From positions 3,337 to 67,336 of the forward strand of contig SWDN01000013.1 of the NCBI GenBank assembly GCA_005116775.1: a DNA stretch of 64,000 nt. Direction: 5' to 3'. Positions 1-7,054 of this stretch are shown in pieces; within the stretch, counting starts at the first letter, position 1; each line of letters begins with the position of its first letter. The position numbers were made by a program, and so were the translations under genes. The notes beneath the pieces were generated by a model. It did no database searches. It worked only from the letters and a program-made list of their open reading frames with translations, and had not been told where the DNA came from. Origin of the DNA: Nitrospira sp. Its GTDB lineage: Bacteria; Nitrospirota; Nitrospiria; Nitrospirales; Nitrospiraceae.

Positions 1-273
1 GGAGAGGTGGCGGCCTACTTCCAAGCGGCGGCGCTCCCCAACTGGTTCTTTGACGGGCTTATCGGCGGAACGGCCCTGGTAATCATTCTCGGATGGTTCT
101 ATATCTATGCCCGAGCCCATGGCCAGACGATGTGGGTGCCGAGCTTGGCGGAAGGGCTCCGTTTCCGTTTGTATGTGCTGTTCATGAACCGTCTCTACGT
201 GGACCAAGCCTATGAGCGACTCGGCAGGGCCGTCACGCACACCGTCCACAGCCTAGACAAGAGTGCGAAGTGA
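1..273 (+). CDS. 3' end of a NuoL/DabB-like proton-conducting membrane subunit (5' end lies outside the window)
   Basis: The frame is open from base 1. The last ~88 aa (GWFYIYARAHGQTMWVPS...RLYVLFMNRLYVDQ) align by eye at roughly 50% identity with the C-terminus of the next gene (463-2163), so it is a tandem paralogue. Confidence 0.7.
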   Translation, partial: GEVAAYFQAAALPNWFFDGLIGGTALVIILGWFYIYARAHGQTMWVPSLAEGLRFRLYVLFMNRLYVDQAYERLGRAVTHTVHSLDKSAK

Positions 274-462
274 AGGTGTTGGAGGATGGCCATCTAGCCA
301 GGATCTGTCTGTTGTGGGACTCCTACTCCAGCCAGTCCTTGACGCGAGTCTAAGCAGCGTATTAATGATGCGTGCGACGGTGACGTGGGAATGCCCTCCG
401 GTCACAATAATTCCCGGACAGGGGGGAAACGATGATCCGCCAGCTAGGGTTATGAGGTATTT

Positions 463-2163
463 GTGTCACTCGCGCTTGCCGTCCCGCTCCTCTTGCTCAT
501 AGCTTCGTGTCTTGTCGTGATCGGCCCCGATCGCACACTACACACGCGCACAAAGCTCGCGGCCTATCCTGTCGGAGCCGCGTTTGTCGGTGCCATTGTG
601 ATCCTGTGGCTGGTGGCGACAGAGGGGCCGATCACCATTCGTTTCTACGACCCCACGTCGCTTGCCTCCTTGGCCTTTCCCATTGGCTTCTATATCGATC
701 GGTTGAGCGCGGTCATGATGACACTGATCGCCGGCGTCAGCACCGTGATCTACTGCTACTCGACAGGTTATATGTACCAGGATCGCCACGTTCGACGGTA
801 TTTGGCGCTGATTTGCTTTACAGACTTCGTCTTGCTCTGCATGGTCTCCAGTGCGAATCTCATGATGTTGTTTTTATTCTGGCAAGTCCTGAGCTATCTG
901 CTCTATCTCCTGGCGCACAACCATGCACATCCGGCGACTCTCAGGGGAGCGTTCAAAACCTTTACACTTCTCCGAGTTGCCGATGCTGCATTTCTTGCCG
1001 GGATTGTTCTCGCATACCAACTCTACGGTACCCTCGAGTTCCAAGATCTCTTCGCTCGAGCCGCCGGGAATCCCGTCACCCTTTCACTCTGGCCTGGGCT
1101 GGAAGTCAGCGCTGCTACTGCCGTCACGTCTCTCCTGTTCATCGGCGCGATGGGGAAGTCGGCGCAATTTCCTTTACATCTTTGGCTACCGGGATCGCTG
1201 TTCGCCCCGACGCCTGTCCATGCCCTGTTGCACGCTGGGATCATCAATGCAGGCGGGTTTCTCATCAATCGCCTGGCCCCGCTCTTCGGCCTAAGTTCAA
1301 CGACCCTTCACATCGCGTTCGTGGTCGGGACCCTCACGGCGATCCTTGGCGCGACCATGATGCTGGTCCAGAACGACATCAAGAAGACGCTGGGTTTCTC
1401 GACGATCGGGCAGATGGGGTACATGATTATGGAATGCGGATTGGGCGCCTTCTCGCTGGCTGTCTTCCATCTCATTGCCCACGGACTGTTCAAAGGGACG
1501 GTGTTCTTGAATTGCGGCAACGTGATCCATAAGGCCCGCCAGGAACCGGCCTTCCCCCATGCGGACCCTCATGCGGAAGCACAGGAGTTCTCGCGCCTGA
1601 CTTGGTTCACGGGTTTCGCGACGACGCTCTTCATTCCACTGCTGATTCTCCTCGTGACGCACGGCGCGCTGCATATTCCGCTGCTGGAGTCGCAGGGCAC
1701 GGTGATCTTTCTGTTCTTCATCTGGATCACCTCCTCGCAGGCCATCCTGACAATGACACGCTTGAGAGCCGTGGCCTCGTGGAAAGTGTCGTCGGCCATG
1801 CTGTTGATCCTGCTGTTCGTCATGTTTGTCTATCTGTTCGCCGTGGAATCTTTTACGGCATTCCTCTACCCGAATCCGCAGGAAGTCGCGTCCTATTTCA
1901 AGGCGGGCGATCTCCCGGATTGGCTCTTCGACCTGATGATCATCGTGGCGACGCTGACGACGATCGCTGGATGGTTCTATCTCTACATGCAAGCCCATGG
2001 GCGGACCGTCTGGATGCCGTCGTGGGTCGAGGGTGTAAGGACTCGGTTGTACGTCCTGTTCATGAACCGGCTCTACGCCGACGAGATCTATCAAAAGCTG
2101 GGCGGGGTCGTCGTGCGACTCCTGGCCCGGTTCGACAAAAGCGTACGAGGATGGTCGCAATGA
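463..2163 (+). CDS. dabB: NuoL/MnhA-family proton-conducting membrane subunit, DabB-like (566 aa)
   Basis: Polytopic membrane protein carrying the PF00361-type core 'GKSAQFPLHLWLPGSLFAPTPVHALLHAGIINAGGFL' and 'TLGFSTIGQMGYM'. GTG start preceded by GAGG. Sits in an operon with a DUF2309 gene. Confidence 0.8.
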   Translation: MSLALAVPLLLLIASCLVVIGPDRTLHTRTKLAAYPVGAAFVGAIVILWLVATEGPITIRFYDPTSLASLAFPIGFYIDRLSAVMMTLIAGVSTVIYCYSTGYMYQDRHVRRYLALICFTDFVLLCMVSSANLMMLFLFWQVLSYLLYLLAHNHAHPATLRGAFKTFTLLRVADAAFLAGIVLAYQLYGTLEFQDLFARAAGNPVTLSLWPGLEVSAATAVTSLLFIGAMGKSAQFPLHLWLPGSLFAPTPVHALLHAGIINAGGFLINRLAPLFGLSSTTLHIAFVVGTLTAILGATMMLVQNDIKKTLGFSTIGQMGYMIMECGLGAFSLAVFHLIAHGLFKGTVFLNCGNVIHKARQEPAFPHADPHAEAQEFSRLTWFTGFATTLFIPLLILLVTHGALHIPLLESQGTVIFLFFIWITSSQAILTMTRLRAVASWKVSSAMLLILLFVMFVYLFAVESFTAFLYPNPQEVASYFKAGDLPDWLFDLMIIVATLTTIAGWFYLYMQAHGRTVWMPSWVEGVRTRLYVLFMNRLYADEIYQKLGGVVVRLLARFDKSVRGWSQ

Positions 2164-6400: not shown

Positions 6401-6688
6401 ATGTCCGGTCCTTGGAGCGATCTCCGGCTTGGATTGGCCAGGCAAACGGTGATGAACGGCGACGCGCCGTACCATGAACCGATGCGATTGCTGACCGTCG
6501 TCGAGGCGCCGCGCGAGCGCATTGAAAAGCTGATCGCGCGACATGATGTCTTACAGCACTTCTACCACAACGCCTGGGTCCATCTCGTCGCCCTCGACCC
6601 CGAAGATGGAGTATGGTATCGGTATCTACCCAGCGGGGCGTGGAGCCCCATGGATCATCTTGCATCGAAGGAGCACATTCACACCTAA
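3458..6688 (+). CDS. dabA: DUF2309/DabA-like protein, the putative beta-carbonic-anhydrase-like subunit of a DAB inorganic-carbon pump (1076 aa)
   Basis: N-terminal '[13 protein letters not shown]' is present. 'YCIDVRSE' gives C487 and D489, and '[24 protein letters not shown]' gives H760 and C775. These reproduce the C/D...H-15 residues-C zinc-ligand pattern reported for DabA. The start overlaps the upstream gene by 13 nt. Confidence 0.85.
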   Translation: [1076 protein letters not shown]

Positions 6689-6712
6689 ACATGGCCGGGA
6701 AAGGAGTCGTCG

Positions 6713-7054
6713 ATGGGCGGTTTGACTTTGCATCCGATGAAAGAGATTCGCGTGATCGTCGCAGGAGAACACAGGGCGTTCGTGACCGAGTTGTTGGACC
6801 AGGTCAAGGCGACCGGCTACACGATCATCGGCAACGTGTCGGGGAAAGGACATGGCGGTGTGCACGAAGCGCACTTCATGTTCAGCGAACAGGAAAGTCT
6901 CGAAATGATCATGACCGTCGTCCCGGAAGAAAAAGTGGAGCCTATCCTGGCCGGGCTTCGACCCCTCTTCGAACGCCATTCCGGCATGATGCTTGTCACC
7001 GACGTGGCCGTTAGCAGGCAAGAATATTTCGGCAAGAAGCGGAGCGGTTCATGA
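6713..7054 (+). CDS. PII-like signal-transduction protein (CPII-like), 113 aa
   Basis: Size and beta-alpha-beta pattern fit PII ('MKEIRVIVAGEHRAFVTELLDQVKATGYTIIGNVSGKGHGG', with a T-loop-like GKGHGG). AAGGAG lies 7 nt upstream of the ATG. The gene is immediately downstream of dabA. Confidence 0.65.
   Translation: MGGLTLHPMKEIRVIVAGEHRAFVTELLDQVKATGYTIIGNVSGKGHGGVHEAHFMFSEQESLEMIMTVVPEEKVEPILAGLRPLFERHSGMMLVTDVAVSRQEYFGKKRSGS

Follow-up and report, generated by a model that had tools for sequence, protein, structure and literature searches.

A probable DAB1-type inorganic-carbon pump locus of Nitrospira with a full-size DabC and a tandem dabB duplicate

Background

Do several antiporter-like membrane genes beside a single dabA encode an inorganic-carbon pump of a new kind, or a variant of one already described? 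The question is raised by the first 7,054 positions of a 64-kb stretch of Nitrospira sp. DNA (contig SWDN01000013.1, positions 3,337 to 67,336; the whole stretch is referred to here as the window), where a partial and a complete dabB, a dabC, a dabA and a PII-like gene, cpII, follow one another. Members of this genus are the dominant nitrite oxidisers, and also complete ammonia oxidisers, of soils, freshwaters and wastewater plants, and fix CO2 via the reductive tricarboxylic acid (rTCA) cycle with very little energy to spend, so that the cost of active CO2 uptake is a genuine problem in their physiology. How Nitrospira pay for it has been raised previously (PMC13147460).

An original prediction, made from the sequence of the window, had taken the locus for a DAB-type pump with at least three antiporter-like subunits feeding one DabA in the manner of a complex-I-style membrane arm, and had regarded the DAB pump as a two-gene unit and the arrangement as uncharacterised. 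The last two points have largely been overtaken. A three-subunit DAB1 (DabA/DabB/DabC) was noted in 2018-19 (bioRxiv 10.1101/476713), DabA homologues had been recorded from Nitrospirae in 2018, and the PII-like gene corresponds by homology to the crystallised CPII (PDB 5D4N). DabC has been reported as essential where present (10.64898/2026.05.01.722082, citing earlier work), and the same publication describes it, from a cryo-electron microscopy (cryo-EM) structure of DAB1 at 2.13 Å, as a NuoM-like, non-pumping subunit that is roughly half as large as NuoM and belongs to no Pfam family. DAB pumps are thought to rely on the proton-motive force alone.

Results and discussion

The core of the locus is a DAB1 operon with CPII

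We consider it likely that the locus encodes a DAB1-type (DabA/DabB/DabC, also DAC) energy-coupled CO2-hydrating pump of Nitrospira with a CPII regulator. As judged by homology and gene order, its dabB-dabC-dabA-cpII core is the known DAB1 operon. The departures from characterised DAB1 are the full-size DabC, the tandem dabB and, in relatives, an mpsC neighbour; a literature search that left most subscription journals uncovered turned up no account of a DabC of full length, of a tandem dabB or of the mpsC linkage in Nitrospira.

The families foreseen for the locus (PF00361, PF10070 and PF00543) were all matched by a Pfam search of the complete genes. The reading of the open reading frame (ORF) at 3458-6688 as DabA, on which the DAB interpretation hung, is upheld by a full-length PF10070 match (E = 1e-269), and the equivalents of four zinc- or active-site residues of DabA2 (PDB 9RD0), namely C351, D353, H524 and C539, are all kept (4/4; AHGS...LDCGAC). 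The complete DabB of the window, DabB-b, matches PF00361 (1e-46) and PF00662 (4e-14) and aligns end to end with DabB2 of PDB 9RD0 (E = 5e-36). Among the PDB chains searched, matches were confined to DabA2/DabB2 (9RD0) and NuoM chains. The window DabA matches DabA1-type proteins of 1040-1055 residues at E = 1e-184 to 1e-222 and DabA2-type proteins at about 1e-125, and for DabB the values are 1e-87 to 1e-106 with the DabB1 proteins of proteobacterial DAB1 loci and 1e-35 to 1e-49 with DabB2. By these scores both proteins are assigned to type 1, where they match far better than against the type 2 paralogues.

Both DabB paralogues retain the equivalents of NuoL R175/D178, K229, H254, H334, H338 and K342; E144 is replaced by Q and the K399/D400 segment is absent, as in the description of DabB2. 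That protein lacks E144 and the K399/D400 helix, and a glutamate on the DabA membrane finger substitutes (PMC13144422).

The PII-like protein matches PF00543 (8e-21) and is 47% identical over residues 1-104 (full length) to the CPII of Thiomonas intermedia (E = 8e-31), the structures matched being PDB 5D4N, 5D4O, 5D4P, 5DRK and 5DS7. Its gene lies directly 3' of dabA in the window and in every complete locus, and on this homology it is an orthologue of the crystallised CPII.

The same arrangement was recovered in a CPII-anchored scan of one genome per species, in which the best 80 of 543 relatives, by match to Thiomonas CPII, were kept; all 80 retained loci are from Proteobacteria, with Aquificae and Nitrospirota unrepresented. 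Wherever one of the 80 has enough upstream DNA, the order is in essentially every case DabB (~560 residues), an ORF of 245-270 residues, DabA (~1045) and CPII (108), and a few have a separate DAB2 nearby. The window thus has the proteobacterial gene order of some 70 loci, among them those of Halothiobacillus neapolitanus (L088), T. intermedia (L009), Nitrosomonas eutropha (L078), Nitrobacter, Acidithiobacillus and Guyparkeria; those organisms are listed as having DAB1 operons with DabC in Supplementary Table 6 of 10.64898/2026.05.01.722082. The identification of a DAB-type inorganic-carbon pump locus stands, with a strong PF10070 match and PF00361 genes that co-occur with dabA in every relative examined.

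The third gene is a DabC that has lost the proton path

The 436-residue protein, predicted as a divergent PF00361 gene, matches PF00361 at 3e-12 over model positions 89-288 only, and profile comparisons identify it as DabC. Alignment of the Nitrospira family to proteobacterial DabC gave an hhalign probability of 98.1% (E = 8e-14; window residues 167-409 against 8-245 of 250), and the window protein is 27% identical to H. neapolitanus DabC (L088) by BLASTP (E = 2e-8). A profile built from DabC family representatives recognises, in 72 proteobacterial loci, the ORF that separates dabB from dabA; the H. neapolitanus match has E = 4e-21. With a profile of the Nitrospira proteins, only 1556 matches at E < 1e-3 were obtained among 1.84 billion representatives; DabC is therefore a discrete family and not generic NuoM.

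In comparison to E. coli NuoM, the residues of the proton path are replaced in DabC (K234 by L, K265 by A, H322 by F, H348 by L and E407 by F), and the E144 helix region is deleted, unaligned or unconserved. These positions are hydrophobic in all aligned family representatives of at least 250 residues except the weakest match, which resembles a true NuoM fragment. The pattern fits the cryo-EM account of Thermocrinis albus DabC, an essential subunit that aligns to the NuoM helices beside NuoL, with hydrophobic residues at the proton positions and no water chain (10.64898/2026.05.01.722082). The reading of the locus as a complex-I-style membrane arm of three pumps is not supported, the middle subunit having lost every proton-path residue. 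DabC is also the fastest-evolving subunit, with 41-45% identity to more distant Nitrospira lineages where DabB has ~70%, DabA 67% and CPII 81%, which would fit a scaffold role.

Seven family representatives of 783-877 residues, from Nitrospiraceae and Melainabacteria, are DabB-DabC fusions, parallel to the "fused" DabC of Aquificae (10.64898/2026.05.01.722082), and such natural fusions support a physical pairing of the two subunits. Each (P0141, P0164, P0170, P0185, P0196, P0203 and P0225) joins a DabB of ~565 residues to the C-terminal ~270 residues of DabC in a single ORF, and gene-calling artefacts are possible; one partial member is named Chroococcales.

DabC is of full size in Nitrospira

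The window DabC has 436 residues against ~250 in known forms, with ~160 additional residues at its N-terminus. Short DabC corresponds to window residues ~163-411 only, and the match to NuoM in sequence is likewise limited to residues ~162-419, against NuoM 225-490. The fold of the whole chain was modelled with AlphaFold2 from an 89-sequence alignment (predicted local distance difference test 83, predicted template-modelling score 0.86), and in Foldseek the model aligns over its whole length to ND4, NuoM and NdhD, with template-modelling (TM) scores of 0.77-0.83 normalised to the query. According to the model, therefore, it is the N-terminal 160 residues that make the antiporter-like fold complete.

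Long forms of 405-470 residues dominate the family around Nitrospira and occur also in Nitrospina. The 436-residue protein itself has hundreds of relatives of the same length, every named one from Nitrospira or Nitrospiraceae. The locus indicates that DabC descends from a complete NuoM/ND4-type subunit, and it is plausible that the long form represents the ancestral state of the half-size DabC known from cryo-EM.

One clade carries a tandem dabB behind a conserved spacer

The partial NuoL-like gene predicted at 1-273 is the C-terminus of a NuoL-like paralogue, dabB-a, although the 90-residue fragment on its own has no Pfam match. It is ~93% identical by eye to the C-terminus of dabB-a in the near-identical contig L001 and 54% identical to that of the window dabB-b; a full dabB-a of 562 residues, with PF00662 and PF00361, occupies the equivalent position in L001 and L003-L006. 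The two paralogues are 74-80% identical and orthologues 86-91%, while the single-copy DabB of L089 is about equidistant from both (73-80%). Both copies are under purifying selection (dN/dS, the ratio of nonsynonymous to synonymous divergence, 0.14-0.15). Between paralogues, identity reaches 86-96% in the channel core (alignment columns 251-450), and divergence is concentrated in the first 250 and last 110 alignment columns, the C-terminal region of DabB-a being the most diverged part.

The duplication was seen only in L001-L006 and L091; the other Nitrospira lineages examined have a single dabB, and a tandem second dabB occurs in none of the 80 proteobacterial loci. As read here, dabB-a is a recent tandem duplicate, and its product is most likely an alternative form of DabB that joins the same DabC and DabA in a complex. 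The first of the three antiporter-like subunits predicted to sit on one DabA is a clade-specific dabB duplicate set apart by a promoter-like spacer and missing where other Nitrospira lineages retain the remaining genes, which counts against a three-subunit arm.

In four contigs (the window and L001:6771-6958, L005:8113-8303 and L091:8114-8310), the mean column identity of the inter-dabB spacer is 87%, and the spacer is more conserved than the synonymous sites of the flanking genes (synonymous divergence, dS, 0.4-0.7). Its invariant core comprises TTGACG (339-344), 15 or 16 further nucleotides and TATTAA/ATTAAT (360-366), and a ribosome-binding site, GAGG, is found at 454-457. A consensus promoter scanner made no call in the spacer and a comparison of the spacer to Rfam gave no match. 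The conservation and motifs suggest a separate promoter, possibly with an operator, for dabB-b-C-A-cpII, and dabB-a is probably transcribed separately.

In contig L005, the last 110 residues of DabB-b (L005:8304-10004) are 84-90% identical to those of DabB-a (L005:6424-8112), the corresponding figure in L001 being 25-70%; the alignment points to gene conversion having affected the C-termini of the two tandem copies in L005.

Genomic neighbourhood in relatives

No public contig with an identical window DabB was found by exact look-up, and the locus context was taken from relatives with a ~94%-identical DabC. In contigs that are 94-97% identical to the window, a divergent PF10057 (MpsC) gene and a β-carbonic anhydrase gene precede dabB-a (562 residues) and a spacer of ~190 nucleotides, and the series continues with dabB-b (566), the 436-residue gene, dabA (1078), the PII gene (113) and SulP remnants. 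Five further Nitrospira lineages (L089/L090, L092, L093, L094 and L095) have the four-gene core with a single dabB, and mpsC stands upstream in L089-L094 as well. Taken over all distinct complete Nitrospira loci examined, the MpsC gene (PF10057, E = 5e-32) is divergent and upstream of dabB in 8/8. A β-carbonic anhydrase gene or selO usually accompanies mpsC, the β-carbonic anhydrase in about half of the relatives. The mpsC gene lies in DNA outside the window and, in relatives, forms a transcription unit separate from the dab operon; neither mpsC nor an mpsC-linked β-carbonic anhydrase was found when 10 kb on each side was examined in the 80 proteobacterial DAB1 loci.

In the contigs nearest to the window, the mpsC-linked β-carbonic anhydrase gene is split into two ORFs (L001:3647-4294 and L004:4992-5639, both on the reverse strand). 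It is intact (215-220 residues) in L091 and L092, and the split is either a pseudogene or an assembly error.

In L095 a second DAB set (L095:1400-7800, reverse strand) stands divergently, back to back with the DAB1-like operon at L095:8342-15033, whose DabC has 478 residues. The dabB of this second set is 42-52% identical and frameshifted in the assembly, the dabA is 49% and the PII 71% identical, and a β-carbonic anhydrase gene follows; the set has no dabC.

Genes of the amoA/amoB type (PF02461, PF04744) lie a few kb from the DAB operon in some contigs (L002:11088-13258, reverse strand; L089:210-2380, forward strand). Those relatives are therefore comammox (complete ammonia oxidisers), and by this gene content the DAB variant is present in comammox-type Nitrospira.

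Proposed mechanism

In the DAB1 pump proposed here, DabB-b would act as a NuoL-like channel through which protons flow down the proton-motive force, and this flow would be coupled mechanically to the zinc β-carbonic-anhydrase site buried in the cytoplasmic DabA. CO2 diffusing into the cell would be hydrated one-way to bicarbonate and so trapped in the cytoplasm. DabC would neighbour DabB in the way that NuoM neighbours NuoL and would buttress it as a structural or allosteric scaffold, not as a second pump, the window form retaining a predicted whole 14-helix antiporter fold. By analogy with its crystallised orthologue, CPII may sense adenine nucleotides and bicarbonate and tune the pump, and dabB-a would supply an alternative form of the channel for use with the same DabC and DabA. 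Vectorial CO2 hydration, proton coupling, a 1:1:1 stoichiometry and ligand binding by CPII are expected from the literature on homologues, for which rescue of carbonic-anhydrase-free E. coli, sensitive to carbonyl cyanide m-chlorophenylhydrazone (CCCP) and requiring all subunits, has been demonstrated.

Several points weigh against this proposal. The window DabC does not have the published size ("about half of NuoM") and it does have a Pfam domain; the long form is nevertheless a size variant and not evidence against DabC homology. CO2 rather than bicarbonate as substrate and H+ rather than Na+ as coupling ion are extrapolated to the Nitrospira DAB from homologues, and the mpsC gene beside the operon in relatives recalls the MpsABC system of Staphylococcus aureus, for which Na+/bicarbonate symport is proposed. 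Nitrospira use the rTCA cycle and have no carboxysome, so the sink for bicarbonate differs from that of the model organisms. Finally, dabB-a may be an extra subunit or the partner of another DabA.

Alternative explanations

The extra-subunit possibility is that DabB-a, full-length DabC and DabB-b form an expanded L-M-L membrane arm under one DabA, with an altered H+/CO2 stoichiometry. The gene dabB-a is adjacent, co-directional and under purifying selection, the termini of its product, which are plausible interfaces, have diverged from those of DabB-b, and the complete NuoM fold modelled for DabC would give the face that NuoM offers to NuoN. Against this, most Nitrospira lineages combine the long DabC with just one dabB, so that it is not an adaptation to a second DabB, the two channel cores are near-identical as expected of interchangeable isoforms, DabC has no proton path to link two channels, and dabB-a is not translationally coupled to the rest, the conserved promoter-like spacer intervening. 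We rate such an arm as unlikely because long DabC is also found where dabB is single, and because it lacks a proton path. If such an arm did exist, more protons would be spent per CO2 hydrated, and the complex would represent an extant intermediate linking Mrp/complex-I membrane arms with minimal DAB pumps.

Slightly less probable again is that DabB-a is the membrane subunit for a second, "orphan" DabA with its gene elsewhere in the genome, giving two separate pumps. In N. moscoviensis and N. tepida alike, a second DabA lacking a transmembrane companion is reported (PMC13147460), and the most diverged part of DabB-a is the C-terminal region that in DAB2 contacts the DabA membrane finger. There is, on the other side, no second dabA within the 64-kb window, and the second DAB of L095 brings its own dabB.

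The mpsC neighbour, divergent and upstream throughout the complete Nitrospira loci, would also suit an MpsAB-like Na+-coupled bicarbonate transporter in place of a proton-driven CO2 hydratase, Na+/bicarbonate symport having been proposed for MpsAB. This we hold to be a slim possibility, lower than either of the preceding two, given that DabA and DabB are of the DAB1 type with the four zinc-site residues kept, and that the tested DAB2 and DAC complexes use CO2 and are CCCP-sensitive, DAB2 without dependence on Na+.

That the membrane genes are ordinary nuoL/nuoM of a complex I operon abutting dabA, as the best NCBIfam names (NuoL and NuoM) and the label "NADH-quinone oxidoreductase subunit M" given to relatives in some sources might imply, has next to no probability and is refuted by NCBIfam scores far below cut-off (293 vs 556 bits for NuoL, 90 vs 264 for NuoM), by the lack of other nuo genes beside the cluster in any relative, by an M-like protein without any proton-path residue and an L-like protein lacking E144 and the K399/D400 segment as DabB does, and by the conserved co-occurrence with dabA.

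Comparison with known systems

The DAB1 systems of H. neapolitanus and Thermocrinis albus share with the proposed Nitrospira pump the order B-C-A followed by PII, a NuoL-like DabB, the zinc ligands, a DabA of DabA1-type length (1076 residues in the window vs 1046) and a NuoM-like DabC with hydrophobic proton-path positions, with homology for all four proteins. The differences lie in DabC (~250 residues and no Pfam match, against 436 residues, a PF00361 signal and a predicted complete NuoM/ND4 fold), in the tandem dabB of the window clade, in the conserved mpsC neighbour, with β-carbonic anhydrase in about half of the relatives, and in the host, an rTCA nitrifier with no carboxysome or Rubisco context. 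DAB2 of H. neapolitanus (PDB 9RD0, PMC13144422) has the two core families, the active-site residues and the DabB losses in common with the window, but it has no DabC and usually no PII, and its DabA is ~250 residues shorter.

CPII of Thiomonas intermedia, which was reportedly described by Wheatley and co-workers in 2016 (J Mol Biol, as cited in PMC6458275), is of the same length class and its gene has the same place directly after dabA; the term "carboxysome-associated" is inapplicable to the window, whose host has no carboxysome. In the cyanobacterial NDH-1MS (NdhF3/NdhD3/CupA), an L-like and an M-like antiporter subunit likewise carry a vectorial carbonic anhydrase. The modelled full-size DabC would bring the membrane architecture closer to this system, NdhD being among the best Foldseek matches (TM 0.82-0.83); however, CupA is unrelated to DabA, and NdhD3 keeps its proton path and works in a redox-driven complex I. 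In MpsABC of S. aureus, MpsA resembles DabB, MpsB resembles DabA and a PF10057 gene is the neighbour in Nitrospira relatives, but the Nitrospira mpsC is divergent and outside the window, the window has DabC and CPII, and the ion and substrate claims made for Mps are unlike those for DAB.

Read as a DAB1 variant, the locus indicates that Nitrospira use this architecture with CPII outside any carboxysome context and that one clade has duplicated the channel subunit and kept both copies under selection. The full-size DabC and the dabB pair are comparative handles for dissecting DAB coupling, not a new kind of system.

Organisation of the locus and flanking DNA

The five co-directional forward-strand genes at 1-7054 and both predicted start/stop overlaps are real by gene calls, which agree with the predicted coordinates, and by inspection of the junctions (Table 1). 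The dabB-b/dabC junction is an ATGA overlap at 2160-2163 and the dabC/dabA junction a 13-nucleotide overlap at 3458-3470 (ATG at 3458, TAG at 3468-3470), and the starts of dabC and dabA are each preceded by a Shine-Dalgarno sequence (GAGGA/AAGGAA) ~9 nucleotides before. From these signals dabC is judged to be translationally coupled on both sides, to dabB-b by the ATGA and to dabA by the longer overlap.

The terminator predicted after the PII gene exists as a strong hairpin with a U7 tract, but it sits ~150 nucleotides 3' of the stop codon and not immediately after it. The hairpin has a folding energy of -25 kcal/mol (z = -5.4), none of 200 shuffles was equally stable (0/200), and a consensus terminator scan marks the inner stem at 7219-7236 with the T-run. 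An Rfam search of positions 1-8200 gave no credible match.

Table 1. Positions of the DAB locus features in the window and of the MpsC gene in related contigs
Feature	Position	Strand	Evidence
dabB-a 3' end, last 90 codons	1..273	+	translation; complete 562-residue paralogue in near-identical contigs
inter-dabB spacer, 189 nucleotides	274..462	+	alignment of four contigs
dabB-b, NuoL-like putative proton-channel subunit (DabB1 type), 566 residues, GTG start	463..2163	+	PF00361, PF00662
dabC long form, 436 residues, membrane subunit with predicted NuoM/ND4 fold	2160..3470	+	DabC homology, AlphaFold2 fold
dabA, putative cytoplasmic β-carbonic-anhydrase-like catalytic subunit (DabA1 type), 1076 residues	3458..6688	+	PF10070
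cpII, CPII-family PII-like putative regulator, 113 residues	6713..7054	+	PF00543
intrinsic terminator, hairpin and U7	~7198..7248	+	folding vs shuffles
PF10057 (MpsC) gene	L001:4309-4653, L005:5649-5993, L089:4701-5051, L093:5522-5893, L094:7454-7855	-	

Directly past the terminator lies a 5'-truncated ruvB (7264-7908, forward strand) that begins at RuvB_N profile position 104, lacks the Walker A region and has an in-frame stop at 7186-7188. This truncated gene with its in-frame stop marks the right-hand border of the DAB cluster as a rearrangement junction. Close relatives have SulP fragments where the window has the ruvB remnant, and some have transposase genes a few kb either side. The remnant is followed at 8098-16715 (forward strand) by a housekeeping run unrelated to the DAB cluster, with genes for a pheA-like chorismate mutase/prephenate dehydratase, an aminotransferase, DAHP synthase, prephenate dehydrogenase, EPSP synthase, cytidylate kinase, an acyltransferase and ribosomal protein S1.

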